NCBI GenBank assembly: GCA_010093605.1
Contig: MU004193.1
Span: 813,520-877,519 of the forward strand
Direction of reading: 5' to 3'
Length of the DNA stretch: 64,000 nt
DNA from: Lophium mytilinum
Lineage: Eukaryota
In this document: positions 37,465 to 58,430 of the stretch, in pieces
How positions within the stretch are numbered: the first letter of the stretch is position 1
Layout: each line of letters starts with the position of its first letter
Notes under the pieces: generated by a model
Told to the model about the DNA's origin: nothing
Seen by the model: the letters and a program-made list of their open reading frames with translations, nothing else
Databases searched by the model: none
Program-made: the position numbers and the translations under genes

Positions 37465-39727
37465 ATGGCTCTGCGTCCACCAGTCAACTTGCACATCTCA
37501 AATCACGTCAGTAGCTGCACTAAAGCATTCGAAAATGTATATCACGGAATTCGACTGACTACTGGAGCTCTTCTGGACACGTTGGACCCTCTCAGAGTGA
37601 GGGATGAATATGGGCGGTTTAAAGTCTGGTCCGGAAATATTGCAGCACATCATACTGGTAGGCGATCGCTTGAGTATAGGCTCCGCGATGCGTCTCATAT
37701 CAGAGAGCAAGTCGTTGTGCTCCTAGTTGACTTACAGGAGACCCTTGAAAGTAGTAAGTACTATAAAGGTTTCTCATCGTTTCAAGCCCTTATCTTTGAC
37801 GACCTGTTTCACTCAAATGATTGCCCGAACTGTTCGCGGCGAAACGATCACTCTTATCAAACGTTTCATAAATTGTCGAAGCGCTTGACTGATCATTTAC
37901 CTGGCAGTGCTTGAAATCTTCAACGGAACCCGCGTACCTCGCGAGGATCTCTCCGATATCTCAGACTCCGATGTCTCGGACAGCGATGACGAGCTTCCTC
38001 CCTTCGATAGCCAACCCCGTCGTGATGTGTCGCAAGCCAATGAGAAACCGGAATTGCAGGACCTTTTATTAGATACTGCTAATATAATTACCTGCCTCCT
38101 GCGACTGTCGATGGCAATCCGCAATCCAGCCCCGAGCGACCAGATCGTGGAATCTGACACGTTAGCAACGTCCTTCTACGAGAAGCATGACATTCAACAT
38201 GTGAGGGACAAGTTCCAGAATGCGAAAGATTATCTAGTTACGCGTCTTGGAAAGGCGAATTCCCGAAGACGACAATACTTTACGTATCGCAAGGACCATC
38301 ACGACAAGCTAGCTCAAGGTATCGAGCTATACTCAACCGAGACGGACGATATCCAGTCAGAGGAAGTCCAAACTTGTGAGGGCGACGTACAAAGTACGGT
38401 CGCCTCGACACTTCCTTCGGCTCTCAAATCAACTACTGCGCAGCTATGTCTCGATGACGATGCGTGTTCTGACGGTGGCCGATCGCAAACGACCTTCGGC
38501 ACATCTGCGACTGAAGACCCAAACACCTTTGAGCACAAGCTGAGATGTCCGCCAATACCGGAAGAGGGTCAAGACGGTCTTCCGTTTGAGTGTCCATTCT
38601 GCTTCTTGATCATTACTGTTAGGAGTAGGAGTTCATGGGAGTAAGCCTTTCAAGTGTCCTTAAAAGTTGCCCCCTCACTAAAACTATTTTAACCGGCTAT
38701 CAGGAAACACGTATACTCCGACCTCCGTCCTTACGTCTGCTCCTTCGAGGACTGCGAGACCCCAGACCGCCTGTTCGAATCCCGCCATCAGTGGTTCGAA
38801 CACGAAATACGATTCCACGGACGCGTTTGGCAGTGTATCGATGGCTGCGGCCAATCTTTTCCATCAAGCTCGGCTTTTCAGGATCATCTACGGGGCGCTC
38901 ATACCGGGCTCGTCGACGAAAATCATACGGCCGCTTTTACGAAAACATGCGAGCGGAAACAAGCAAGCAATGGCCCTGTGGAGTGTATGTTTTGCGGCAT
39001 CACCAAGTCTCGGAAACATGCTCAAAAGCACATTGGACGACATCATCAACAACTGGCGCTGTTTGTACTGCCGGATCTGAATGATGGTCAAGACGAAGAT
39101 CAAGATGAAGACAGCCTTGATCATAATGAGGAGGACCACGAAGCTGTCAGCAATGAATCTGCTGAGGACGAAGCAGAGATGTCCGTCAAAGATGGATTCA
39201 ACGCATCAACAACACTCTTAGTGGAGCTAAGCAGAGTTAGCAGTGAACTGACACTGGCACGGAGATACATCTACGCGTGTACGGCAGCATCTAATTCCAC
39301 TCTTACCAATCAGTTGGCACTAGAGCTTCGAAATCATTTAAAAGATATTGGAATACATGAGACTGCTACTCGATGCGAGCTTACCTCGGCAGCAAATGAT
39401 ATCATTTGCAAACACGAAAAGGAAGGACGGGACGAAATGAGCCAGAAACTTATAGACGAGTCAAGGAATGCATCAATAGCTCAGTTGGCTGAAATGCTCC
39501 CATCTGGTAGTCACCCACGCCTTTCAGGTGGTCGAGAGCAAGCTATAGCGCTATGTGTATCGGAGATGCACGATAGGTCTGAAATGAGCCGCCTCGAAAA
39601 GCTTGCCACGGATCAAGGCTTGACGGAGGACCAAAAGGCGCACCTAACAAAACTTCAAAAATGGAATTTAGAGGAGTTTGAGCCACGCCAACAAGAATTT
39701 GAAAAAAGAATGAACTCCCGGAAGTAA
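37465..39727 (+). CDS. Fungal hypothetical protein with helical N-domain and C2H2-type zinc fingers; exons 37465-37753, 37908-38640, 38704-39727 (3' end uncertain)
   Basis: RFKVWSGNIAAH..RRSLEYRLRDAS, RLGKANSRRRQYF, FECPFC...HVYSDLRPYVCSFEDC...WFEHE, WQCIDGC and CMFC...HIGRH. Introns restore the frame. Confidence 0.82.
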
Positions 39728-40742
39728 GTTTCTAGGGGATCGAAGGGGGGCGCCTATCAAGACCAAAAATGGGGCTCCGGGCGAAAGATCAAATGTGAAC
39801 GCGAGCTTCACTGTGGCTTCAAGCCATTCCTGACAGAGCGGTATGAGCAAAGCATGTCAAACGTTACAAAGCAAGAAGTATGTGTAGAAACTTTTTCAGC
39901 AGTTCTAAAGGATGATCAAGGAATACGGGAATACTCTAAGGTGAAACCGACTATGCCGGAAAACGCTACAAACTTGCACCGCGAGACGGAGATTACGGAG
40001 GGTCAAGCTGCTCGAGAACCAATCCTTGCGCCACGTTCACGGCGCCAAAATTCACGGCGCTGAGCAGCTTAGGGTGCTCATGAAGAGGATTCCTTGCCCG
40101 CCTTAGCTTGGGTGACGTTGGGGCTTCCCAAAGCTGCTATACCGACGCTTGATGGTAGGTCAGCGCCCACTGTTTTGCTACTTTGACTGGGGTACTGATC
40201 TAGATTCGTGATGTAGGACGAGGCTTCTGCGGGTAGACACCGCTTGGCTCAGGATCTGGGCAAACTCCTATCCCCCACAAGCTGTCCACGACTATCCTGC
40301 GACCAAGTTCCATGTATTAGTTAGCGGAGACAGGGAGCTAATCAGCATCTGGAATCCTGCTAGCCGTGTCACCCGTCCCTATCATGATTATGGAGTTTCT
40401 TTTGATTCAGACAACCTGGACAGTGGTAGCTCGGTGGTGCCTCTGGCGCGCATATCATGTCAACGCTGACGGAGAGGCCACGGTCAGACCTCCAGCGTGA
40501 CTCTCGCCGTTTCATAAACGGGCTTGGAGATCACATTCGGAATTTTGCGACGTATCCCTGCGTTCTTTTATATCGTAAACGCTAGAATGTTGCATCTATT
40601 CAGGCTTAATCGTTTTCTTCCCATCTATCATAGACCCTAGAGATGTGCAATCTGGCTCTTGTTAATTTGTTTAGAAGCTTGTTTCAACTACGCATAGAGC
40701 CCTCCGCATCCTATGTACCGCCTAGCAAATATCGGTCTCCGC

Positions 40743-40985
40743 GCGGTTCGATTTCATGGCTTTTCTTACTAAAGCACCCAAAGCCTCCTCCTCTTCCCCA
40801 CCTCTACGTCTAGCTCAGCATCCTCCAAAATGTCTCTTAACGGTTCGATCCGATAGATCTTCTTACAAGTCTACCTACAAAGTATGCACCGGGAGGCTAC
40901 TTGTACGTGCGACGCTGCGTCTCCCAAAATCATTATCTACGGTTGGAATGAATACCTTTTCTTACAGAAGCACCCAAAGCCTCCA
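40743..40985 (-). repeat. Three inverted copies of the 27.7-29.5 kb repeat unit
   Basis: The reverse complement of 40743-40786 is AGGCTTTGGGTGCTTTAGTAAGAAAAGCCATGAAATCGAACCGC. Further copies lie at 40840 and 40939 (~98-bp spacing). Confidence 0.8.
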
Positions 40986-41079
40986 CGTATTGCTTGCACC
41001 TCTACCTCTATCCTCCCGTCAACCTAAATCTGATCTCCAACCGCAAAGCCCCGTCGGCGGAGATGGGGATCACATGACT

Positions 41080-42900
41080 GTCACGCGCGGCCTACCTCCG
41101 CCCCACTTCTCGTGGGTATAAAAGATCTCCTTCCAATCTCTTTTTTCTGATTCATGGATGTGTCGAGGCGGAAGGGAGATCAACAAACTGAGCAAAACTC
41201 GCTGACAGAGGGGTGTTGGATCAGCAAAACATTCTGCCCCCACTGATGATGGAGTCTTGTGTTGGGCGGGCAAAAGATCTAAGGGCAGACGGCTTCATGG
41301 TAGATTAGCTGGTGGATTAACAGCAATCACGAACCAGTTGAATGGAGTTGTGGGTGTGGGTGGATTTATCAAAATGAAGGGAAAGAAAAGCCGGTGGGTG
41401 CGTGACGTGGCGGAATGTTAGGGGTGTTGATGATGCTCTCTGCCACGATGTTTTCATAATGTCCTTCTCACGATGTCGGATCAAGAGACCGGTGGCATTT
41501 TGTACGGAAATACGATCTACCACGAGGTTAAGAAGATAAGCAGCATCATCAACCAATTACAAAAACCCCACGCATGATGTGGTTCATCCTCCAAGTCTGC
41601 ACTCAGACCATTGTGTCCTGTAGAGTATTCTTTTGCACCCACCGCCCCGCACCATAAGCCGCTACCTGTGCTCATTTGCTGCCTCGATCCCTCCTCCATG
41701 CCAACAACAAAACCAGAGACGAGGGAAGGAGACGTTCTTATACTCCATCGAAGTCCGCGCTATGTAAGCCGCACGTGGTTTCCTTCGCCTTCCCTGCACT
41801 CCCGCTTCGCCGCTTCCCCTCTTTACTCCATCACCTCTTCCCGTGATTGCCAGGTGCTAGCGTCTCCTCATGGGTATAAAAGCTCCCTCCCGCGTTAGGT
41901 TTCTTTCTGCAGAACATCCGGAGGTGGTTTGAGGGTGGAAAAAAGAAGATCACAACGCTCCATGGAGTGGTGGATCAACATGCTGTCCATCAATCTCATG
42001 GGGCTGGGGGTTGGGTCGTGTGGTTGAGCAAAAGAATACGAACACCTACACTATGTGGGTTTTGGCGTTTTGGGACGTTGAGGGAATGGTGATGCGCTTC
42101 TCCATCTATTCCTAATAATCGCAGTAATAATCATAGCATAATCCTCACCACTAAACGACACTACAGATACCAGCAACTAGCAAAGAGACATGATAGAGAG
42201 AATCACTACTTTCTGAAGGTCGACGCACCTCCATGGAAGGTCACATTATCTCAGTTTTCAGGACACAGCCACCATCCCAGGACTGCTGTGGTTGTTTTGC
42301 ACACACCAGCCCGCACCATGATTTGCAAACGGGTTGCATTTTTGTTGCCTCCAACTCCCCCCTCCATACCGACAGAAAGAGCGCAGAGGCGAGGAGGTCT
42401 TATACCCAGTCGAAACCCGGGTCATGCGACAAACACGTGCCCATCCCCCGCATGATGTCCACGCACCGATATCTTTTCGCGGGCATAGAATACCCCTCGT
42501 CGAACACAGGGCACGTGTTCTCTCTCTACCCCTAAAACTATTGAAACATGACCTATAACCGCGTGACCTCCACGTGTCTGCCCTTAAACCCACCTCTTCT
42601 CGCGAATATAAAACCTCTTCTGCCCCGTTCATCTTCCTTTCCGTAAAGGACATCGGAGATGCGAGCTCAACAGAGGATCGGGAATTAAGCGATGGACTGG
42701 AGGGGGACTGAGATCAAAAATGATTGTTCACATTTGTGATGGACTAGACTGAGCGTTGGATTAGCTCCTGGCGACTTCCCGCTTGATGAAGTTGTGTTGC
42801 GGGCGAGTGGAGCAAACTAAGATATGAGGTGTTCCCATGGGTCTCTGGAGAGGTAGTGCACTGAGAGGGTGTTAAGTGGGAGTGATGGTGGTCGTTATAT
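41080..42900. other. Cluster of five TATA-driven, apparently non-coding repeat-array units (+41117, -41742, +41875, -42404, +42607)
   Basis: GTATAA(A/G)-type boxes followed by a CT-rich tract and ATGG..G-rich..CAAAA units. CACGTG at 41772, 42434, 42512 and 42571 lies between divergent TATAs. Confidence 0.6.
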
Positions 42901-43563
42901 TCTTCTCTAATGCTAGACATAAGTGTTCAGTAGATGTAGTTTGTATGATGTTTGGCGGAAGTTAGGGGAGTTTGGGGGGGTGATGGAGAACATCATTAGG
43001 TTAAAGAGTGGACGGACACGCCTCCATTCCTGTTCAAGTTCACTGGACTTGCACAGGCAGACACCATGACGCCCATGCCTACGTGAGTTTTCAAGACACC
43101 AACCCAGAACCATTATTCGTGCTAGATTACGATGTTCGATACCTATAACTCTCTCATCCACGCCCATGACAGAAACCGGGGCTCGTCGAGAAGACTTTCC
43201 ATAATATACCTTGTCGAAGCTTGGGACATGTGAGGGACACGTGATACTGACTTCCCCGAAACGACAACACCCATCTTTCTTGGACACTGGCCCGCACGAG
43301 ACATACGCCCATGTTTCGGCACAGTATAAGCTTACAAGTTTGATGAAAAGAGAACCAGCCATAGGCCAATCTGTTCCAACTACCTACGTAACCCCCACCC
43401 CTCTCAACCCCATCGCCGAACGCAAGAAAAACACAAAAGAACCACCAATGCAGCACCATGATGCCCCAAAAAATACCAGGCGCCATTCAGACCCCTACTA
43501 GAGATATCCATATCTTATCCATGCCCATTCCCATTTCCCCTTTCCTCCCTTCCATCCCAATCA

Positions 43564-46500
43564 TCAACCAGCACTCACAACCCCCGAATTCGCACCACCT
43601 CTCCTCTCCCCAAAATTATGCAACCGCTCCCCAATCAAATACACCTCATCCCGCACCACACCCCTCCACCTCCTTACCCACGTCACACACACCCTCGCGC
43701 CCCAAACCCCTCCTCCCGCGCCCGCAACAACCGGATAGCAAAAGCGCCACACAAGCCTCTTGACCTCTTCGCTCGCTCCCGCCCACAATGTCCGATTGAG
43801 TCCCCATGCCAGCGCACTCGGCACCGCAATCGCGATACCAAAGCCCACCAGCACCGGGACGATGAAGCAGCGCGTGGCCAACCTCGCGTTCGGATCCCCG
43901 TAGCCGTCGCGCACGACAGCGGCAAAGGCGCGGGCAGGGCGCGACTGGCGGTTCGCGAAGAGGAGGCGCGCAGCGAGGCGGGCGTAGAGGAAGCCCAAAG
44001 TCCAGTCCTGGATCAGATGGACAACGTGGGGTTCGTGGGGGCCGAGGTAGGCGTGGAGGGGGATGAGGATGTAGAGTTCGAGCAAAAGGGCGAAGAGGAT
44101 GGGTAGCAGGAGCACCAGGGACGCGTAGACATATGTGATGCGGGCGATTCTGAATGCGAAGCGTGACGCTGTGACGGTGAGGGTGCGGAGAGTGGATAAG
44201 GGAGAGCGGAGGGGTTGGTGGAGGTGGGCGAGCAGCGGGCGGATGTGCAGCGCGGCGTAGAGGAGACCGCCGAGGGTGTAGATGCCGAGGGAGAAGGCGT
44301 AGATGTCGTTCATGCGGACTGAGTTGGGGATGAAGAAGGAGAAGAGGTAGCGGCCGAAGAGGAGGGGGAGGATAGTGATGCCTACGCCCGTGGCGGCCGC
44401 GAAGAGCCAGATGGTGAGGACGAAGAGGGCGATGCGCACGCGGAACCAGGGGGGAACGTAGACCATGGTGATCATTTCGGAGGCGCGGGCATGTACGCCG
44501 CTTTCTTCGGGCTTGCCGTCGAGGCGGTGGTTGGATTGGTCGACTTCGACGAAGACGGGGTCGCCTTTGGGGATGCGGACTTGGTCGGAGGCGGGGGCTC
44601 GCACGTACTTGCCGTCGAAGAGAAAGTAGACTTCTGTGTTTCGATCTTCGACGAGAAGCTTGCGGTCGTCTCCAATTACGGGCTTGGTCACATCACCCTT
44701 GGAACCAAAGAACTGGTGTTTCCAGGTTCGGTGGACGTGGTGTCCCAGCTCATCCGCATTCTTCTCGGCGAACAGGAAATCGGACAGCCGAAGGAAGCGA
44801 GCGCAAGTGCGGAACCACCACTGGTATGTCGCATGGAGGCCATCGCTGGGTTTGGCAAGCTTGAGAACCAATGGCGTAAGGAAATTGTAGAAGAGCAGAT
44901 CCAATGGGAATTCTAGCGCCGGGGTGTGCGAGGACCAATGGATAGGAAGGACGCCAGTTGATGTGTAGTTCAGGCCCCAGACCACGCCGCCTAGGCATAT
45001 GATGACCAAAGCGCCATACACCAAGGCACTAAAGGCAATCTTGCGGAGCTGCGTAGTAACGCTCCTCTCCAATACGTCGCGAACTGGATGGAAGGTAGGG
45101 TCGTCGGGGTCGCGGATGAAGTATAGGACGCCAGTCCTCATGATCTTTCGACACATGGAGACGAATAAGGCGAAATGAAACATGTAGCAGGTGCCCACAA
45201 ACCAGTGCACGAATCCGGATGTCCAGGGCGACTTCATCGTGAACTGGTATCTTGACCACACTGTCGCGTTATCGAAAAGCGGTAGCATAGCGGCGTCCAA
45301 GAGCAAGCCACAGTACAACGGAAATGCAATCATCTCGATACTAATAATCAATATGACCTTTAGGACTCCTCCAGCCTGTTGTAGAACATCGGCTACAACG
45401 CCTTCAACCCTTCGCCCTTGTTGCGAGGAGGTGAACGGGGTGCTCTTCTTCAGATACAGGGCGCCAGCTACAGCAAAGAACATGTAACCAGCACAAACGG
45501 CAATCAGGCGGTCAGTCGCTGTCCACTGCTCTATAGCAGCATAGGTCGAGGTGACGTTCTGGCCGACATTGAAAGTGATCTTGTAGGATTTGGAGGTCCA
45601 CAAGAACAAGGCAATGTCCTGGGCTTTGTTGAGGGCAGCGGATGTAGCAACAAGTACGGTAGCAGGGACCTGACAAAGCATGTCAAGTACTGTGCCGTTT
45701 GAGTTCGCAGACGCAACCTTCTCATAGAGCAGGACAATCGCATTACCAGTGGTGTTCAAGGCCTCGGATGTCGTGTTTTGGATGGTCCGCAGGGCGATAT
45801 GCGAATTTGTGGACAACGCAAAGAAATCCGGACTGGATATTGTACCCGTCTGTACGAAAACTTTGGCGATGCGGTCCATAGCATTCTCAGCTACCGCTCG
45901 TGCAGGCTTTGCGATGAAGTCGGCCGGCGTAGTAAAACCGTTGGAGAGCAGACCGAGCACCCAGCGGATGAGCTGCACACTCCAGTAGACAACACCGGCA
46001 GCAACGCACAAAGCTGCGTCCACAATAAGATCCGCACCTAAGGCAATACCTTGAAGTGGGAACTTGACAAAAATGACGATCGGACTTCCCATAAGAAGGA
46101 GCACCAACTTGCCCCATATGTATGGGGCCCAGACAGCGAGAGCTATGGTTGCGGAAATTAGCAACGCGCTGAAAATGGCGTTCTGGAATAGTCCTGACAA
46201 AGGTCCTTGCATCCCAATCAGCTCCAGGATACCTTCCAAATCTTCGGCGTCGTCAATTGCGTCTTGGTCATTGAGGTCAATACCAGCTTGAGCGGCGGCT
46301 GCGGCTACCTCTGGGTCCTGTCTCGGTGCATTACCAGGCTCCCGGTGAGCGGCAGCTGCTTGGCCTGCAAAAGGCACGAAAGGGGCCTCATCTGCCAGGT
46401 TTTGCACTACATGTTCATCATTACCGGCGTCGTCTGCAGTTGGAGGCGCGGCCGGCGCGACATCTCCCCAAAGCCAGTCCATGATACGCTCTATCAAGTT

Positions 46501-48792
46501 AGGCTGACGAGGTATAGCTTCCCTTGCAGGCTCGGGTTCGGCAACAATTGGTGGTCCTACAGCCTCGCTATCGTCAAAGTCGGGGAAGATCAGCTCAGAT
46601 ACTGAAGAGTCCGAGAGATCAAGCGACTCAATATCTGCGGCTGTATCAGATGGATCTACAGCCTCGTCTGTAATGTTCGCTTCCAAACTGCCATTCTCGG
46701 ATGTTGCGGGGGTAACATGCACAGATGACTCCGCAGGGGATGAATTCAGTGTTGGTAGTCCGCCATCCTCTGGTTCAGTGGCTTTCTCCTTGCCTTTTGA
46801 AGAGCCTTGATTAGCATGGGCACCGCCGTCCTCGTCAACAACGACCGCAGCTACTTGTTGCCAGCTTTCACTGCTATGATCGCTCTCATGCTCTTCTGAT
46901 TCAGAGTCCGATTGTGACAGGTGGAATTGAGGCTGTGTGTCCGCCACATCGCCACTATTCCGACTCGGGTTTTGGAGCGAAACATCGTCTGTGTTCTGGG
47001 TTTCTTCATGAGGGCGATTGACGGCCGTGGACTTCGCTTGGTCTAAAGATGGGGGGTTCCATGTTTCCCCTTCTTCTAAGCTTCGACGGATCTCCGTAGC
47101 AAGAAACGAACGGTCTCTTGCTGGCATGTTTGGCCGTTGATGAGAGCTCGATCCTTCAGGACTGTCAGGGTGCAGCGCCTCCGAAGCGCTGACTGGGTCC
47201 TCTCTCAGCGCAGGCGTGCCAGCGGCCTCCACAGTAGCCAGATCTTCGGCCCGAGTTCGGCCTGGAGTGCGTTCTGATCTAGAACTACGCTTCCTCTTCC
47301 TGGAGCTTCGTGACTCCTCGTCTGATGATACAAAATCTTCACTGTGCATCTCTTTCGATAGTTTGACAAGGGTCTGGCGTACCCTAGTAGCCTCTTCTTG
47401 TGGCAAGTTGTCAACCAAGAAAGCGACATCCGCGGAAGTGCCCGTTCGCAAAACGTGTCGTATGGGCTCGGGGAGGTCTTCGCTGGTCTTCCAAGAACCC
47501 CAATCAGCGTCGCGCGTCCTTCCAGTCGACGATGATCGCCTAGAGTTGACGGGTGTTGTTGGCCCGGGTCGGTTGTGGCGTAAATGTGTTGCAAGTCGTG
47601 CCGCATCTCCAGCTTGATGCTCTGCCCTCAACCTGGCATTTTCATCTAGTAATGCTTGACGCTCTACTCCCAATCTAGCAATCTCATCTCTAGTAGCTTG
47701 CTCTTCGTCCACCTCAAGATCGTCCTGCTCTGGTTCGGCTAGTTCTGCAGCTTCAGCAGGCTCCATCTCTTCTTGCTGAACTTCTGCGACTTGCCCTGCG
47801 TGGTTTGCATCCATGGCAGCCATATTGATCACAGGCTGTTGTTGTACAACCCACTCTCGGATGAGAAAGATGAGGATGAAGGCAATGACAACTAGTAGCG
47901 TGATGATTTGTCCTTCTAGTACATCGAGAACAAATCGATTGAGCGCTGGCGAGTTGAACCATTCAAAGAATGTGATGTCGGAAAGGAGCGAAGGATTGCG
48001 GCTTCCAAGTATGATTTCAACCGTAGCGTTCGGCGTGAGAGTGTTCCCACCTGCGGCAGATGACCCATTGGAAGCAGCGTACATCCCCAGCACGTACTTC
48101 TTAACGACTTTCCACGCCGAGGGCTCCCCCGAACTCATGTTCAGGCTCTGCGAGAAAGGAGCCAAGAATGCCGGCAAGCTTCCAAATGATATGGTAGAAT
48201 TAGTGGCGCGAGCCGATGCGATGGTCGAACGTATAGATTCTATGGCATCTCCAGTCCAGGGCGTTGCGGAGGGCACGGGTTGGGGGGTTCTTCCTTGTGG
48301 TTCGTCATACGAATTGTGATTCCAGCCACCGTCTCCTACCCAGAACAAGCTTCGCCATGTGAACCGCATGCACCACGGCAGACAAAGAAGCCATACTGTG
48401 CCCACCAATAGAGCCCGACAGCATGATATGAAGTATGTGAGGATGTGAATGATGGCTCGGCGGAAGAAGATAGTGGTGGGCAGGCGGCGCGGCATGTGCG
48501 GGTGGTAGAGCTTAGTGAAGCGGAAGGGCGTCTTGCAGAGCTCGCAGTGCTTCTTCTGGGAGTGCGACAGCCATTCCATCAGGCACTCTTGGTGGACAAA
48601 CTTGATGCTGCCACTGCACTTGCATGGGTAGAACAAGGGCTCGTCAGATGTCCCTTCGCCGCGGCATATCCGGCATGTGTCGGCCTCGTCTGCATTCTTG
48701 TCCTGTGCCTTTGCATTTGTCGCATATGCGGGGTCGTTCATGAGGTCTGGGAAAGGATCCATGGCGGCGGCAGTACCAGGCTGGTCCTCCAT
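43564..48792 (-). CDS. DOA10: ERAD E3 ubiquitin ligase Doa10/Ssm4 (MARCH6), 1742 aa, intronless
   Basis: N-terminal RING-CH (CRIC...PCKCSGSIKFVHQECLMEW...CELC), TEB4-Doa10 motifs (FIRDPDDPTFHP, HWFVGTCYM), many TMs and C-terminal RDEVYLIGERLHN. Confidence 0.95.
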   Translation of the reverse strand: MEDQPGTAAAMDPFPDLMNDPAYATNAKAQDKNADEADTCRICRGEGTSDEPLFYPCKCSGSIKFVHQECLMEWLSHSQKKHCELCKTPFRFTKLYHPHMPRRLPTTIFFRRAIIHILTYFISCCRALLVGTVWLLCLPWCMRFTWRSLFWVGDGGWNHNSYDEPQGRTPQPVPSATPWTGDAIESIRSTIASARATNSTISFGSLPAFLAPFSQSLNMSSGEPSAWKVVKKYVLGMYAASNGSSAAGGNTLTPNATVEIILGSRNPSLLSDITFFEWFNSPALNRFVLDVLEGQIITLLVVIAFILIFLIREWVVQQQPVINMAAMDANHAGQVAEVQQEEMEPAEAAELAEPEQDDLEVDEEQATRDEIARLGVERQALLDENARLRAEHQAGDAARLATHLRHNRPGPTTPVNSRRSSSTGRTRDADWGSWKTSEDLPEPIRHVLRTGTSADVAFLVDNLPQEEATRVRQTLVKLSKEMHSEDFVSSDEESRSSRKRKRSSRSERTPGRTRAEDLATVEAAGTPALREDPVSASEALHPDSPEGSSSHQRPNMPARDRSFLATEIRRSLEEGETWNPPSLDQAKSTAVNRPHEETQNTDDVSLQNPSRNSGDVADTQPQFHLSQSDSESEEHESDHSSESWQQVAAVVVDEDGGAHANQGSSKGKEKATEPEDGGLPTLNSSPAESSVHVTPATSENGSLEANITDEAVDPSDTAADIESLDLSDSSVSELIFPDFDDSEAVGPPIVAEPEPAREAIPRQPNLIERIMDWLWGDVAPAAPPTADDAGNDEHVVQNLADEAPFVPFAGQAAAAHREPGNAPRQDPEVAAAAAQAGIDLNDQDAIDDAEDLEGILELIGMQGPLSGLFQNAIFSALLISATIALAVWAPYIWGKLVLLLMGSPIVIFVKFPLQGIALGADLIVDAALCVAAGVVYWSVQLIRWVLGLLSNGFTTPADFIAKPARAVAENAMDRIAKVFVQTGTISSPDFFALSTNSHIALRTIQNTTSEALNTTGNAIVLLYEKVASANSNGTVLDMLCQVPATVLVATSAALNKAQDIALFLWTSKSYKITFNVGQNVTSTYAAIEQWTATDRLIAVCAGYMFFAVAGALYLKKSTPFTSSQQGRRVEGVVADVLQQAGGVLKVILIISIEMIAFPLYCGLLLDAAMLPLFDNATVWSRYQFTMKSPWTSGFVHWFVGTCYMFHFALFVSMCRKIMRTGVLYFIRDPDDPTFHPVRDVLERSVTTQLRKIAFSALVYGALVIICLGGVVWGLNYTSTGVLPIHWSSHTPALEFPLDLLFYNFLTPLVLKLAKPSDGLHATYQWWFRTCARFLRLSDFLFAEKNADELGHHVHRTWKHQFFGSKGDVTKPVIGDDRKLLVEDRNTEVYFLFDGKYVRAPASDQVRIPKGDPVFVEVDQSNHRLDGKPEESGVHARASEMITMVYVPPWFRVRIALFVLTIWLFAAATGVGITILPLLFGRYLFSFFIPNSVRMNDIYAFSLGIYTLGGLLYAALHIRPLLAHLHQPLRSPLSTLRTLTVTASRFAFRIARITYVYASLVLLLPILFALLLELYILIPLHAYLGPHEPHVVHLIQDWTLGFLYARLAARLLFANRQSRPARAFAAVVRDGYGDPNARLATRCFIVPVLVGFGIAIAVPSALAWGLNRTLWAGASEEVKRLVWRFCYPVVAGAGGGVWGARVCVTWVRRWRGVVRDEVYLIGERLHNFGERRGGANSGVVSAG

Positions 48793-49865
48793 GGCGGATC
48801 GGGGATCGGAAGTGGTGGGGATGTATTTGACAGAGCTGGCGCAAGCCGTGAAGGCGGATATGGCTATGTTGCTGGCATCGGCTCGGAGTGAGAGAGCGAA
48901 GGTCCTCGAACCGGTGGTAGAAGGTGTCTAGGTACGCTGGTAGAGGTGGAGTTAATTGTGGAGGTAAAGTAGTCTAGACGTCGGGCACAGTGGTGGCAGC
49001 GGCGATTGGCGGGATTGCGATCAAAGGGTGGTAGACTGAGGGCGCAGACCAAAGGTGAGTCTATATGCAAAGGGTATCTAGGAAAGCAGTCTGCTGGAGC
49101 AAGCGAAGTGGTTCAAGCAACTGGGCAGGTTGAAGTCATCGAGCGTGGGCCAGTGCCGAATTGGGCGGAGAGCACGGCAAGTTCCGCCAGCACCACGACA
49201 ACGCGGTAGTGAATGTCTAGCAGGTTTCCAGCCTTGTTCGAGTCGCAAAGACTCCTCCGGCACAGTCTGGCTCGGTCTGCTCTATAGAACCTGTTGCGAA
49301 TCAGGCGCGTGGCAGGCGGCCGCCGAGTACAAAGAGCAGCACGCGCTTGGCAGCGCCTTGATACGCAAGCGATGCGCGGTTGTTTCCCGTCGAGCCCGTC
49401 CTGAAACCGTAGTGAATGTCTTGCACCGGGCTGCTGCAACTGTGGCCATCCGCTGCCTCTCGTTCCATAAACGTCCCATAGCACGTCTTGCAGTTGTCGC
49501 GCTGTCAAACGGTTGACCGTCTTTCACGAACCACGCGCCGAACTGTCCCCCAGTCCCGCCAGTGATGTAAATGACGTTACCTCGCTTCACCATCTAGCGC
49601 AAGAAGCCCTGAAACCAGGAAACCTGCCTGCTCTTGTCAACACCGCGACCTTCCTGATCCCATAATAATTCTCTGCACATATACGCTCTGAGGCAGGCCT
49701 CGTGAGTTCCACCCCCAGCTTTGCCGCCCCAGTCCTAACAGCGTTCGAGTTCAGAAGCATCCCGGACTCCCTCCAACCCGCCTAACTGCTCCACACCCGC
49801 ATCCCGGACCGAACACAGTCAGATAGCTCTGAATCGGTGCTCACGACACCTCCGCCTGTCCAGCA

Positions 49866-52800: not shown

Positions 52801-54860
52801 ACGCCGTTAGTGTTGCTCAAAACCAGTATTCCATTGCCAAAGCCCGAGTTTCGGAGCTGGTTTCGGGAACGCCGAAGCCTGTCCACGAGGAGATGCTCTC
52901 TTCTATCGAGAACGCCTACTCCGGGTCACTATCCGCTGCGAGTGAGAGGTGGCAAGCTGTTCTTCAGTACACCAACACAGTCAAGAGCTATGCTTCAGGC
53001 CCAACACAAGGCGCCATGGAATCCATATCGTCAGTTGCTGCGTCAAGACTGTCCGAAGGTCTCAGTCTCGCTTCTGCACAGTACACCAGTGCTAAGATTG
53101 CGGTGGGTGCTGAACCGACTCCTGCATCACAGAAATATGTGGCCGAAGCGCAACGTCGTTACTACGAAGGAATTGGCCTCGCGCACGCTCGCTACTCGGA
53201 ATTTGTGGAGGCTGCTTCAAGCGCAGTCTATGGGACACCGACACCAGCGTACCAAGGTGCAATTGCAGCCGCCCAGAGCCAATACTCAGCTGCCGTTGCC
53301 GCCGCTTCGTCCAACATGGATGGCGTCCTCAGTGCTGCCAGTTCTGTCGTTGGCAAGACCACCAAGTCTCCAGCCCAAAGTGTCATAGATTCCGCCTCTT
53401 CTCAGTACGACGCCGCTGTATCCGCAGCTGCTGCTTCGCTTTCAGCAGCTTCATCTAAGGCTAGTGAGGCTATCTACGGCACACCAGCACCAGCATACCA
53501 AGGCGCAATTGCAGCGGCACAAAGCCAATACTCAGCCGCCATTGCTGCCGCCTCTTCTAACATGGACGGTGTCCTCAGTGCTGCCAGCTCCGTCGTTGGA
53601 AAGACTACTAAGTCCCCAGCACAGAGTGTTATTGACTCCGCCTCTTCTCAATACGAAGCTGCAGCATCAGCCGCGGCGGCTTCTTTCTCGGCGGCTTCGT
53701 CCAAGGCTAGTGAAGCTATATACGGCACGCAGCAGGGTACCTTCGAGTCTGTTGGCTCTGTCATTTCGGAGTCAGCTGCTTCGATTGCATCCGAGGCCAG
53801 CTCTGGTATCATTGGAACCGAAACTCCCTGGACCGAATCAGTCGCAGCTCAAGCCAGCCAAAATTGGGATGCTTTGATCTCCAAAGCCAGTGAACAGATC
53901 TACGGTGCTCCTACCCCCTTCTCCGAATCCGTCTTTTCGCAAGCAGGTGCATATGGAGCTCAGGCGACCGATGCCGCTGCCTCGCAATATGCCGCCGTGC
54001 AGGCTCTAATCTCCGAGCTCGTCGTTGGCAAGGAGCCGGACTTCACCGATAGCGTTATGATCAAGTTCTCTTCTGCATACTACGTCGGCTACCCTGCAGT
54101 CGCATCATCCGCCAGCTCCCTAGCCAGCGAAAACTACGAGGCAGCTTCATCATATGCCGCCGATGCGTACGCCTCCGCTTCCTCTGTCGTAACCTCCGTC
54201 TTCACTCCCCCGCCCGCTCTCGAAGCCATCCTCGAATCCGCCACCGAGCAGATCAACGCCGTGGTCGAAGCGGCCTCTGTTCAAGTCTATGGCACCGAAA
54301 AGGGCACCATCGAGCAAGCAACCGAAGCCGCCGCGAGCGCCTACTCCTCTGTCCAGTCCCGCGCCAGCGAAGCCGTCTACGGAACGCAGCCTAGCTATGC
54401 CGAGGCCGCGCAAGCCAGCTTCGCCGACGTTGCGTCGAGCGCTCAGAACGCCATCAGCATCGCTATCTACGGCACCCCCACCGGCACCATCGAGTCGGCG
54501 ACTAGCGGCGCTGCGAGCGCGTACAGCTCCGTCGCCTCTGTAGTCGCTGAGAACGCTGCTGCTGCTGCGTCTGCGGCTGGGGGCACCTACGATGCGGCGA
54601 AGGCGAAGGTCAGCGAGGCGATCTATGGGCCGGAGCAGAGCGCTGTTGAGAGCGCCCAGTCACGCCTCTTGGCTGCGGTGGAAAGCGCTAAGGCGAAGCT
54701 CAGCGATCTATACGAGAATGGATTACCGGAGCAGGTCGAGGCTGCGAAGTCGAAGATCGAGGAACTCGCCAGCAACATCAACGGCGCTGCGAGCGGCGCT
54801 GCTAGCAGCGTTTCGAGCGCGGCGGCGAAGGCGACGGATAGAGTCAAGGATGAGTTGTAG
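49866..54860 (+). CDS. Large ER-type protein: N-terminal TM, coiled coil, Ala/Ser-rich YG repeats, C-terminal KDEL; exons 49866-50056, 50313-51029, 51077-52663, 52724-54860
   Basis: Three canonical introns join the ORFs in frame. RLLSWYLLITVLFRCP..C signal anchor, recurring (I/V)YGT motifs, and the protein ends RVKDEL. Confidence 0.88.
53229..53725 (+). repeat. Coding tandem duplication, 246 bp (82 aa) x2
   Basis: YGTPTPAYQGAIAAAQSQYS... at 53229 and YGTPAPAYQGAIAAAQSQYS... at 53475. Many of the differences are synonymous. Confidence 0.92.
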
Positions 54861-55679: not shown

Positions 55680-56945
55680 CCACGTCAGTCCCTCGTGACC
55701 GCCAAGCGCCCCACCTTCTGAGCAGTATAAGAACTTCTCCCGCCCGCTAGCTCGCTTTCTTCTTCTTCAGGGAAACATTGAAGAAGGCAGGGAAGGGGGG
55801 GGGGGGGAATCAAAAAGCAACCAACCTCAAGGCGGATGGACTGGGTGGGAGGGGGATGAAAATACTATTGCTACTTGGAACTGGACGATGGCTGGGTGGG
55901 AGTGGGAGGTGTGGTCGTTCAAAAATCTCTTTCATGACTGGTCATGAGCGAGTGGGAGGTGTGGTCGTTCAAAAATCTCTTTCATGACTGGTCATGAGCG
56001 AGTGGGAGGTGTGGTCGTTCAAAAATCTCTTTCATGACTGGTCATGAGCGAGTGGGGTTGGGGATTGAAATCCCAGGCTCTCAGATCGCATGGCTTGGGT
56101 GGAGAAGTGGAAGACTGTCTAAAACCAAAAGGATGTGCTTCGCAAGCTAGACATGGGGCTGGGGAGGGTCGTGTGGGTTTTTCAAAAATCACAAAAACAC
56201 TCGATGGATGTTGTGGAGGTTGGGGATCAAAAACGGGAAATCGAATGCCTTATGAGTTTGGCGGAGGAGGAGTCTCAACTACAACTTTCCACCACAACTC
56301 CCGATGTGCGGAAGGGGTCGTACAAACCGGCTTCTGAAAAGAGTGTCATGGCTGGAGCTGGGCCGGTATGGATAATAATATTTTGCACGCCATTCGCATG
56401 GCTGGAGCTGGGATGGTCTGGAAATCAACATTCTCCAAAGCATTGGGTAATGTGTTGGTGGAAACGGGTGCGTCGTCAACCTCCCAAGGCTAAGGTTCCT
56501 ATGGTGGAGGATGTTTTGAACAAACCTCCCAGAATACGAGGGGGTATGGCTGGGCTGCGCTTGTCGAAAACTCAACGAAGATGCGATATATGGTTGGATT
56601 GTGGAAGCCGGGATGTCGACATCGTTATGACGTCCTCATAATGAGTTGAGTCAACAAAAACATTACGACACAATATTCATGGTCCGACTGCGGAGACTCG
56701 GATATCAATGCAATAATGGCTTCCTTGCGATGGGTGGATTCACAAGCGTTATACCACTGGATCCATGACCAGGCTGTGGAAGTCGGGATATCGACAGTCG
56801 ACGACATGTTCATTGATGGATTGAGGTGGAGTGGAGTGGCATTAATCAGATTAAGCCGCTCGTTTCATGTTGGTGGCTTCTGGGTGGTTCAATTGTAAAC
56901 ATCAAAGAGACGATGACTGGAGGTGGAAGAAGGGGAGTTACAGCT
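55680..56945 (+). other. TATA-driven long array (~20-25 units) of the ATGG-G-rich-CAAAA family
   Basis: TATAAG at 55726, CT tract, ACAT at 55775, then units at ~45-55 nt spacing. Confidence 0.6.
55900..56056 (+). repeat. Perfect 50-bp tandem repeat x3
   Basis: GAGTGGGAGGTGTGGTCGTTCAAAAATCTCTTTCATGACTGGTCATGAGC at 55900, 55950 and 56000. Confidence 0.95.
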
Positions 56946-57039
56946 ACACGGTGATCATCTTTCGGGAAGTCCGTGGTTTCAGTACCTCTCCCTCGGCGCT
57001 GCTCTATAGTTTCAGCACCTCCACCTCAGCACTACTCCG

Positions 57040-57312
57040 ATGGCCTCGTTCAACGAAAATTCCGACGAGCTCATACTCGCTATAGTCGCTGATGTGGCTC
57101 TCGAAGACATCGTCAGTCTTTCAAAGACATGTCGTCACCTCCGCGAGATCGCCCTCCCAGCGTTCTTTTACACCGTAGCGTTGACCTGGGCAACGACGCA
57201 AAGCAGGGATAGGATCCTCCCATATCCAGAAGCGGGCTTGATTCTGCGAACGGTTGTCCGGGACTCTTCCCTCGCCGCACTCGCAAAGGTGGTTAATCTT
57301 CGGATGCGATGA
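57040..57312 (+). pseudogene. Truncated F-box protein gene
   Basis: SDELILAIV...LEDIVSLSKTCRHLREIALP.FFYTV...LILRTV is an F-box-like N-terminus. The frame stops after 90 aa with no obvious continuation. Confidence 0.55.
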
Positions 57313-57399
57313 GTGTCTAAGATAGGGGCGAACCTTCATTCTTAGGTTATGGTAGGGATATGGGAGGAGATCGAGGAGAACGGTGATGGGCTTCTGTGA

Positions 57400-58430
57400 C
57401 ATGCTGGAATGGGGGGTACCATCATCGTTCACTGAAGCTACTATTCCGAGCACCAATAGCAACATCCCCGCCTCTTTCAAACCCCGGCAAACTCATAAAT
57501 CGGTCGAAGCCAATGTTTTGATCAGGCACTGGCTTCATGGGAACTCATGCTGGCGCATTTTTCGACCGCGGCTGTAAACCTTCTCCTTGAACAACTCTTC
57601 CCTCTCCTTACTTCTCTCTTTTATACAGTGAAAAAGATGAAGAGTCACATGATAGCAGACTTAAACCCCGTACCCAACTCCTATCATTCGCTCCAGGCCC
57701 TCTTTGGATATACCTACCTCCCACTATCGCCTCACATCAACCATCTCACGTGGCCCTCTTCCCTTCCACGTGATGCCTGTTAGTCCCCTCTTCCGGTGGG
57801 TATAAAAACCCCCTTCCCTTCCTCAACTTCTCTTCTTCAAGGTCGACATCAATGGTGGCGGCAAGGGAGCAAAACCATGGTATTAGAGACTACATGTGGC
57901 CGTTCGGTGGAGGGGCAACAGCTTGACCACCTCCTGCCATGTGGTGTTGTCTAGCTGGAGCAGTAAGAGGGAGATGTAGCGCAACATGGAGCGTTGGTTG
58001 GGGGAGCAAAAAGCCTCACTATTGGGATATAAGTGATGATGATTAGTAGGATTTCGGAAAGAAGCTAGATATCAACGTCACGATAGAGATCTAATATCGC
58101 CCATATAAAGCAATAGTATTGGTATGCAATAATGCTCTCCGTCAATCATGAAGAGAAGAGCTCTTCAACTATTATACGCAATGTCGAACATCCGCATTGA
58201 AAGCCACTTACAGCACGCCGGCCACACTCAACCATTTCTATGGTCTTGAAGCTCGCAGATCACCGAGCAGACCATGTTTAGTAGCGTATTCCTATTTTAT
58301 AGCTCCCATTTCTTCCTCCATTTTTCCTCTCTCCCCTCTCCCTTTTCTCCCTTGATTTCTTCCTCATCTCCCACTTGCCCACACTTTATACCTTAGCTGA
58401 CAGCACTCCACACTCCCCTCTCCCACGTGC
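57400..58430. other. Further TATA/CACGTG units of the same non-coding array family (-57625, +57801, -58389)
   Basis: CACGTG at 57747, 57767 and 58423. GGGTATAAAA at 57798, ACAT at 57846, and ATGG...GAGCAAAA units downstream. Confidence 0.5.

Follow-up and report, generated by a model that had tools for sequence, protein, structure and literature searches.

A putative family of promoter-bearing, non-coding block-and-linker units in Lophium mytilinum

A 3-kb gap without genes, flanked by the 3' ends of two convergent genes, lies within a 64,000-nucleotide (nt) stretch of the Lophium mytilinum genome (GenBank assembly GCA_010093605.1, contig MU004193.1, positions 813,520 to 877,519 of the forward strand; hereafter the window, in whose own coordinates all positions are given). 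A sequence-only reading of this gap had described TATA boxes followed by arrays in which ATGG, a G-rich segment and CAAAA recur, and had taken them for a family of non-coding transcripts. The locus raises the question of what such units are: whether they form a family, whether they code for protein, which of their parts are conserved and what they might do. Our analysis indicated that they are probably a genuine repeat family, non-coding and equipped with promoters, of a kind not described before. The explanation we favor, with a probability of roughly 0.4 that includes the premise of the family itself, is that the units are RNA polymerase II (Pol II) non-coding minigenes, whose unstructured transcripts would carry G/U-rich blocks at fixed spacing and act as a multivalent platform for a hypothetical factor.

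Unit layout, promoter module and block arrays

Locus 1 (41.08-43.25 kb) was found to consist of a convergent unit pair in three diverged tandem copies, with periods of 758 and 732 nt, giving six units that can be aligned to one another (Table 1). The five TATA-type boxes of the sequence-only reading were where it had placed them, TATAAA in the three plus-strand units and GTATAAG in A- and B-. Its CACGTG sites (41772, 42434, 42512, 42571 and 43238), the ACAT motifs of B+ and C+, which lie 39 and 43 nt past TATA, and the block units that it had quoted were likewise present. It had overlooked the sixth unit, C-, whose box GGTATATTAT at 43208 completes the third convergent pair. A search with an nhmmer profile of the six locus-1 units detected two more units in the window, L2 and L3, at a second locus (55.7-58.1 kb) that had also been overlooked; L3 is a short unit resembling those of locus 1. 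Two minus-strand units at ~57625 and ~58388, which would complete convergent pairs with L2 and L3, are weak candidates only. The locus-1 alignments and the nhmmer matches at the second locus bore out the earlier proposal of a multi-copy family with a common promoter module and a body of constant blocks and variable linkers.

The distance from the E-box (CACGTG or a sequence differing from it in one or two bases) to TATA was 34-36 nt in all eight units, with CTTC-N6-GTATAA between E-box and TATA. The tract 3' of TATA was 54-81% pyrimidine, and ACAT lay 39-49 nt past TATA in four of the eight. Similarity among the units started at the E-box, nothing being alignable upstream of it, and no conserved element terminus was seen. 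In its description of core promoters, a genome-wide map of transcription start sites in Aspergillus nidulans gives a CACGTG peak near -70, TATA at -30 to -45, a pyrimidine-rich region from -50 to +25 and a CA start (PMC4046813). Judged by sequence and with predicted start sites, the units have this layout, and each appears to carry a complete, ordinary core promoter of the normal strong type of filamentous ascomycetes. They share the E-box/TATA/pyrimidine/CA arrangement with the general A. nidulans promoter but differ from it in that the module drives no open reading frame (ORF) and that 64 kb contain no fewer than eight copies of it, paired convergently and divergently. The module had been called a typical ascomycete Pol II promoter on the strength of its TATA and CT box, which agrees with that layout. 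Co-regulation of the family by a basic helix-loop-helix (bHLH) factor, also proposed, was not established: since CACGTG belongs to the general layout as that map describes it, the E-box would mark an ordinary promoter here and not necessarily a regulon.

Each body contains 3 to about 20 blocks, spaced about 44-51 nt apart, and a block starts with (Y)CATGG, continues with 12-30 G/T-rich nt and ends in [C/G]AAAA. When the units were compared with the rest of the window, TCATGG occurred 8 times against 0.7 expected and CAAAA 20 times against 3.2 expected. The linkers between blocks were 18-21 nt long in 13 of the 22 cases parsed; three values of 8 nt were parsing artefacts arising from an ATGA inside a perfect repeat, where the true linker is 18 nt. 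The bodies had a GC skew of +0.29 to +0.46 on the non-template strand, and the skew reaches 0.67 elsewhere in the window. Past the array, the 3' part of the units holds a shared TGATGATG-like motif (of the UGAUGAUG type), together with a CT-rich stretch and with A/T-rich strings resembling 3'-end signals. We also noted that A+ (41405-41425) and C+ (42950-42975) share GGCGGAA(T)GTTAGGGG, which contains the telomere-type hexamer TTAGGG and directly precedes the 3' TGATG motif.

Comparison with dinucleotide shuffles, the check that the sequence-only reading had named, showed that both the block motif and its spacing exceed expectation. ATGG-N8-40-CAAAA occurred nine times on the two strands of 41080-42900 against 0.79 in the shuffles; none of 500 shuffles reached nine, and neither did any other 1820-nt tile of the window. 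Nine of 17 ATGG-to-ATGG gaps in six bodies measured 41-52 nt, where 0.89 would be expected (0 of 1000 shuffles). A strict block motif (ATGG, 8-35 nt with at least 70% G+T, then [CG]AAAA) had 10 matches in the 128 kb that the two strands of the window comprise, all of them in family units, on the sense strand and below a TATA. The six locus-1 units are paralogues and hence do not count as six independent events.

Table 1. Coordinates of the family units and related features in the window
Feature	Position	Strand	E-box	TATA box	ACAT	Blocks	3' motif	Remarks
Unit A+	41082..41481	+	CACGCG (E-box-like) 41082	TATAAA 41117		41154, 41249, 41297, 41342	TTGATGATGCT 41427	RNA contig 41029-41481
Unit A-	41480..41777	-	CACGTG 41777-41772	GTATAAG 41742		41699, 41655, 41611		Convergent with A+
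Unit B+	41840..42130	+	CCCGTG 41840	TATAAA 41875	41914	41962, 41998, 42086		Back to back with A-
Unit B-	42150..42439	-	CACGTG 42439-42434	GTATAAG 42404		42367, 42319, 42275, 42234
Unit C+	42571..42990	+	CACGTG 42571	TATAAA 42607	42650	42692, 42739, 42837, 42885		RNA contig 42571-42933
Unit C-	42930..43243	-	CACGTG 43243-43238	GGTATATTAT (degenerate) 43208		43113, 43067		Most decayed; promoter inside Doa10 3'-end RNA contig
Unit L2	55680..56960	+	CTCGTG 55692	GTATAAG 55725	55775	~20 block-linker units over ~1.2 kb		nhmmer E 3.7e-11, start 55678
Perfect 50-nt tandem repeat within L2	55900..56056	+						3.1 copies, 100% identity; block plus 18-nt linker
Unit L3	57749..58060	+	CACGTG 57749, 57767	TATA 57801	57846	57852, 57986	GTGATGATGAT 58033	nhmmer E 2.7e-09, start 57758
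Candidate decayed unit (weak)	57330..57660	-		CTGTATAAAAG (TATA-like) ~57625				Convergent with L2; inverted match 56225-56264 / 57484-57523 at 70% by alignment; missed by nhmmer
Candidate decayed unit (weak)	58100..58429	-	CACGTG 58429-58424	GGTATAAAG ~58388				Convergent with L3; spacing off

Conservation among paralogues and coding potential

The paralogues were 39-53% identical and had fewer transitions than transversions in all six pairs, indicating that they are saturated and bear no signature of repeat-induced point mutation (RIP). RIP-mutated duplicates were rejected on this ground; the GC content of the region was 50% against 53% for the window. In every one of six paralogous unit pairs the blocks were more alike than the linkers (69-94% vs 40-68% identity), and promoter core and blocks stayed recognisable among the saturated paralogues. 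Between A- and B-, the 19-nt length of the linker was kept at two positions while its sequence was near random. L2 contains a growth series of its own, from identical units in 3.1 copies, through a pair that agrees at 15 of 16 block positions and 23 of 34 others, to old units sharing only the block; the perfect 50-nt repeat represents the youngest unit duplications. The simplest model for these sequences would be tandem duplication of whole units followed by linker drift under constraint on block and spacing, in which case the blocks and not the linkers are likely the working part.

As relatives we used 25 syntenic metagenome loci (~409 kb), fetched with the C-terminus of the Doa10-type protein encoded next to locus 1. 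The closest, L001 and L011, were 79% identical to the window over the Doa10 C-terminus and 64% identical over 1746 amino acids (aa). On the Doa10 5' side, both retain the gene order of window positions 43.5-55 kb (Doa10, then ORFs of 243, 536 and 721 aa). Synteny is lost on the 3' side of Doa10, which is the side of locus 1; the relatives lack the 3-kb gap, and in L001 the next ORF starts ~650 nt past the Doa10 stop. Strict blocks numbered six in all 25 loci and were scattered. At the site of locus 1, a synteny break, the family is thus lineage-specific.

A pattern of this kind could also come from selfish or neutral repeated DNA, that is, a promoter-bearing satellite or minisatellite or the relics of a mobile element, spread by local tandem and inverted duplication and without host function. 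The conservation of promoter and blocks would then stem from a conserved master copy or from gene conversion. Such an origin would suit the multiple copies with their 758- and 732-nt periods, the position of locus 1 exactly at the synteny break in a gap that the relatives do not have, and the low RNA depth reported below. It would also suit the threefold perfect 50-nt repeat in L2 and the G-rich strand bias, which is typical of minisatellites. The body does have the properties of a G-rich minisatellite, with 44-51-nt periods, a 50-nt unit in 3.1 perfect copies and the GC skew given above. The class describes the body only, however, and leaves the conservation of promoter and blocks unexplained: here every array comes with a conserved, complete promoter and a 3' motif, and the blocks are kept between saturated paralogues. 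Although the locus-1 pairs arose in place and have reached saturation, they retain E-box, TATA, blocks and linker length while the rest is near random, which neutral decay does not predict. A mobile element would be harder to reconcile with similarity that starts at the E-box, and in the window's copies we found no terminal inverted repeats, long terminal repeat (LTR)-type ends, conserved termini or transposase/reverse transcriptase ORFs. Moreover, the whole 8-kb stretch lies within single contigs in two DNA runs, so it is not a high-copy near-identical repeat. We regard a selfish or neutral origin as unlikely.

The absence of a common ORF, claimed on first reading, was confirmed by the frames, which shift between paralogues. 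The conserved ATGG-to-ATGG distance is 44 nt in A- vs 48 nt in B-, one conserved block lies in different frames in B+ (41998) and L2 (56153), and the repeat periods are 44, 48, 50 and 51 nt, the perfect repeat of 50 nt not being a multiple of 3. Peptides read from the first ATG shared nothing between units, and none of 71 six-frame ORFs of at least 30 aa reached the Pfam cut-off. Sense open frames were not longer than in shuffles except for a 172-codon frame in L2, which was matched by 12 of 500 shuffles and is not significant across the eight units tested. The longest ORF through the L2 block array (162 aa, 56153-56641) matched only itself and two long repeat proteins in a library of 1.84 billion representatives, and these two were rejected as spurious sums of many weak stretches. 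A public protein collection lists this ORF as a predicted protein (100% self-match), which is likely a spurious gene call. Shifting frames, periods that are not a multiple of 3 and the lack of a Pfam or library homologue led us to reject a protein-coding gene or a repeat-peptide precursor, whether of Kex2-processed repeats, a ribosomally synthesized and post-translationally modified peptide (RiPP) or a pheromone. The same observations, together with peptides that differ in length and sequence between paralogues, make it very hard to believe that each AUGG starts a tiny ORF in a micropeptide array, even though most blocks begin with ATG and a G at +4, some CAAAA runs abut an ATG and L2 has its long frame. 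We conclude that conservation, as far as these sequences indicate, acts at the nucleic-acid level and not on protein.

RNA structure and alternative roles of the arrays

A search of both loci with Rfam gave only chance-level matches, far below gathering scores. The best small nucleolar RNA (snoRNA) match, SNORD35, had 16.6 bits against a gathering score of 36, and microRNA (miRNA) matches had 18-21 bits against 57-93. A box C/D snoRNA, suggested by the shared TGATGATG motif, was rejected since no RTGATGA was accompanied by a CTGA 40-200 nt downstream; four of 15 relaxed C-like boxes had any CTGA downstream, and the best terminal stem had four of six pairs. Minimum free energy (MFE) z-scores of the sense strand lay between -0.85 and +1.56 in eight of nine bodies, no better than shuffles, and the exception (L2a, z = -2.96) was caused by perfect repeats. 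Consensus folding of the 5' parts of A-, B- and C- gave -8.2 kcal/mol with almost no covariation. Folding z-scores near 0 on both strands and the low miRNA scores excluded a hairpin precursor of the microRNA-like (milRNA) type. A short-intron idea was also dropped, as donors and branch sites were poor by eye and the RNA contigs unspliced.

The arrays might instead be precursors of small RNAs in which blocks serve as processing punctuation and linkers (~19 nt, or ~23-24 nt with the A-run) are released as guide-size RNAs. The predominance of 18-21-nt linkers, the 19-nt length kept between paralogues with unrelated linker sequence and the arrangement of units in convergent pairs are all consistent with this. 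On the other hand, hairpins were not found on either strand, the perfect repeat contains one linker three times over, and the linkers resemble drifting unit copies and not acquired sequences. BLAST of the linkers against the window and the 409 kb of relatives returned nothing beyond chance 13-14-mers, so that no linker had a second match there. The window contains no RNA interference (RNAi) gene, and no 5'-base bias was visible by eye, though it was not counted. We consider small-RNA precursors improbable. Neurospora loci of dicer-independent small interfering RNA (disiRNA), as outlined in PMC3764098, resemble our units in having promoter pairs that fire towards each other in gene-rich DNA; they are ordinary genes with antisense transcripts, whereas the convergent promoter pairs here are known from sequence and their arrays need not overlap.

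A more specific form of the small-RNA idea would have dozens of promoter-driven arrays whose G-rich punctuation delimits segments of a fixed length of ~19-24 nt, excised as guides for an effector of the Argonaute type. CRISPR and TIGR guide arrays and the 21U-RNA minigenes of Caenorhabditis elegans offer an analogy, and only that, in that constant punctuation alternates with variable segments of near-constant length. The units differ from them in belonging to a eukaryote and in having no associated nuclease in the window and no targets found in it or in the loci of relatives, processing being hypothetical. The likeness to acquired spacers is weakened by linkers that behave like drifting copies. 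A CRISPR/TIGR-like guide array was rejected because the blocks share only 69-94% identity and differ in length, a single linker is present three times, no linker has a second match in the window or the 409 kb of relatives, and the window contains no candidate effector. Guide arrays seem highly unlikely to us. If the reading were true, the family would be a eukaryotic, genome-encoded counterpart of prokaryotic repeat-spacer systems, one that renews itself by unit duplication and linker divergence.

The units could also act in cis as DNA, with promoter and G-rich block arrays serving as protein sinks or platforms, as tracts prone to R-loops or recombination, or as buffers between convergent genes, and with the RNA as a by-product. 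Locus 1 does fill the space that separates two convergent genes at their 3' ends, the non-template strand has the positive skew described above, and the promoter is the best-kept part of every unit. Blocks rich in SYGGRG/AGGGG-type strings (read by eye, not counted) would fit as well. However, the skew is unexceptional for the window, and of its 15 canonical G3x4 motifs only 2 fall in the loci. This lack of enrichment also led us to reject a G-quadruplex. Blocks that are always sense to their own promoter, together with the shared 3' motifs, suggest that the transcript matters, though the orientation is inherited with the duplications. A DNA-level role seems doubtful on this balance.

The suggestion that the units are not a described fungal element stood, as they were without a match in Pfam, Rfam or the literature, where we found nothing similar, though not every wording was tried. 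A close likeness lies with long non-coding RNAs (lncRNAs) that act as sponges or scaffolds through a repeated motif, such as fission-yeast meiRNA, with its many DSR motifs for Mmi1, and human NORAD, with its Pumilio sites. Like the units as we read them, these are unstructured Pol II transcripts in which many copies of a short motif are the only conserved parts. Here, by contrast, there is a multigene family with promoters of its own, a fixed ~45-50 nt spacing, a motif unlike DSR or Pumilio sites and a hypothetical binder. Each of these systems, namely lncRNAs of the meiRNA/NORAD type, minisatellites, disiRNA loci and repeat-spacer arrays, shares one aspect with the units and fails on others.

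Transcription, surroundings and meaning

One sequencing run, on record as RNA by guess only, was taken as RNA since it skips two GT..AG introns (62-63 nt) in a flanking gene. It gave unspliced contigs over A+ (depth 5.7) and C+ (depth 3.8), whose right ends lie ~20-30 nt past the A/T-rich 3' elements of these units. There was no contig over 41482-42570 (A-, B+ and B-), which counts neither way. Transcription from the TATA boxes, as had been predicted, is supported in part by these unstranded contigs, whose left ends are considered below.

In the explanation we favor, the units would be small Pol II transcription units that make non-coding RNA and form a multi-copy, lineage-specific family. Their arrays would grow by tandem duplication of whole block-plus-linker units, after which blocks and spacing would be kept and the linker sequence would drift. 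The blocks (YCAUGG...G/U-rich...[C/G]AAAA), and not the linkers, would then be the working part, the unstructured transcript would act as a multivalent sponge or scaffold for a block-recognising factor, and dosage would be set by copy number and the shared promoter. Among the three roles that the sequence-only reading had offered, the data lean towards the protein-binding scaffold; z-scores near 0 speak against hairpin-type small-RNA precursors, and shifting frames against micropeptides.

Several observations weigh against the minigene explanation. The RNA contigs begin 88 nt (A+) and 36 nt (C+) upstream of TATA, unlike a TATA-driven start. Their depth is low compared with 14.6 and 142.6 for the flanking genes, and as they are unstranded and A+ and C+ adjoin these expressed genes, they may stem from read-through. 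Outside YCATGG and [C/G]AAAA the block lacks a sharp consensus, and the number of bare ATGG fits the dinucleotide content (in A+, 4 observed vs 4.0 expected), so that the non-random part is the composite block with its spacing. The family was absent from the 25 syntenic loci (0 promoter modules and no nhmmer match at E <= 0.5), and thus no cross-species conservation supports a function. Evidence for constraint comes from few paralogues of one genome, the perfect tandem copies show minisatellite-type dynamics that require no function, and the block-binding factor is purely hypothetical.

The gap itself is bounded on the left by a plus-strand gene whose RNA contig ends at 40740 and on the right by a minus-strand gene for an E3 ligase of the Doa10/MARCH6 type (ORF 43564-48927, with RINGv and MARCHF6_C domains). 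The RNA contig of the latter reaches down to 43134, ~430 nt past its stop codon, and overlaps the promoter of C-. The window also contains a HET-domain gene, which together with the 62-63-nt introns gives it the look of Pezizomycotina DNA. Between the end of the upstream transcript and A+, a 97-99-nt repeat is present in three diverged copies (40735-41040) with pyrimidine tracts ending TTACAG/TACTAAAG, and a separate low-depth RNA contig covers 40810-40975 within this stretch. A GT..AG intron at 40154-40215, skipped by the RNA contig, lies ~430 nt downstream of the end of a 344-aa ORF (38693-39727), indicating that the gene of this ORF has a further exon or an intron in its 3' untranslated region (3'-UTR).

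Near the second locus, a short ORF at 57032-57310 resembles an F-box (Pfam F-box-like, E 7e-4, under the cut-off). It lies between the array of L2 and the candidate minus-strand unit and is possibly a gene fragment. The 721-aa ORF upstream of L2 contains a 246-nt tandem duplication (53227-53728; 2 copies, 82% identical). A 162-nt tandem repeat at 1801-2208 (2.0-2.3 copies, 82-89% identical) carries a block-like string, GATGGTGTTGGGCGAGCAAGAG, but no E-box/TATA module and looks unrelated to the family.

Were the units inert, they would still form an uncommon class of repeat, in which a minisatellite is joined to a full Pol II promoter and which multiplies where synteny breaks, sowing promoters in gaps free of genes. 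Annotation would be affected, spurious gene calls included; a public protein collection already contains at least one L2 ORF. If instead the units work as genes, they would form a large, fast-evolving family of non-coding RNA genes whose design has not been described in eukaryotes. In it, a standard promoter precedes conserved G/U-rich blocks that keep a fixed spacing, and the linkers between them drift freely. The units would then offer a tractable case of the birth, expansion and selective upkeep of a multivalent RNA or guide array, and would imply a factor that binds the blocks.

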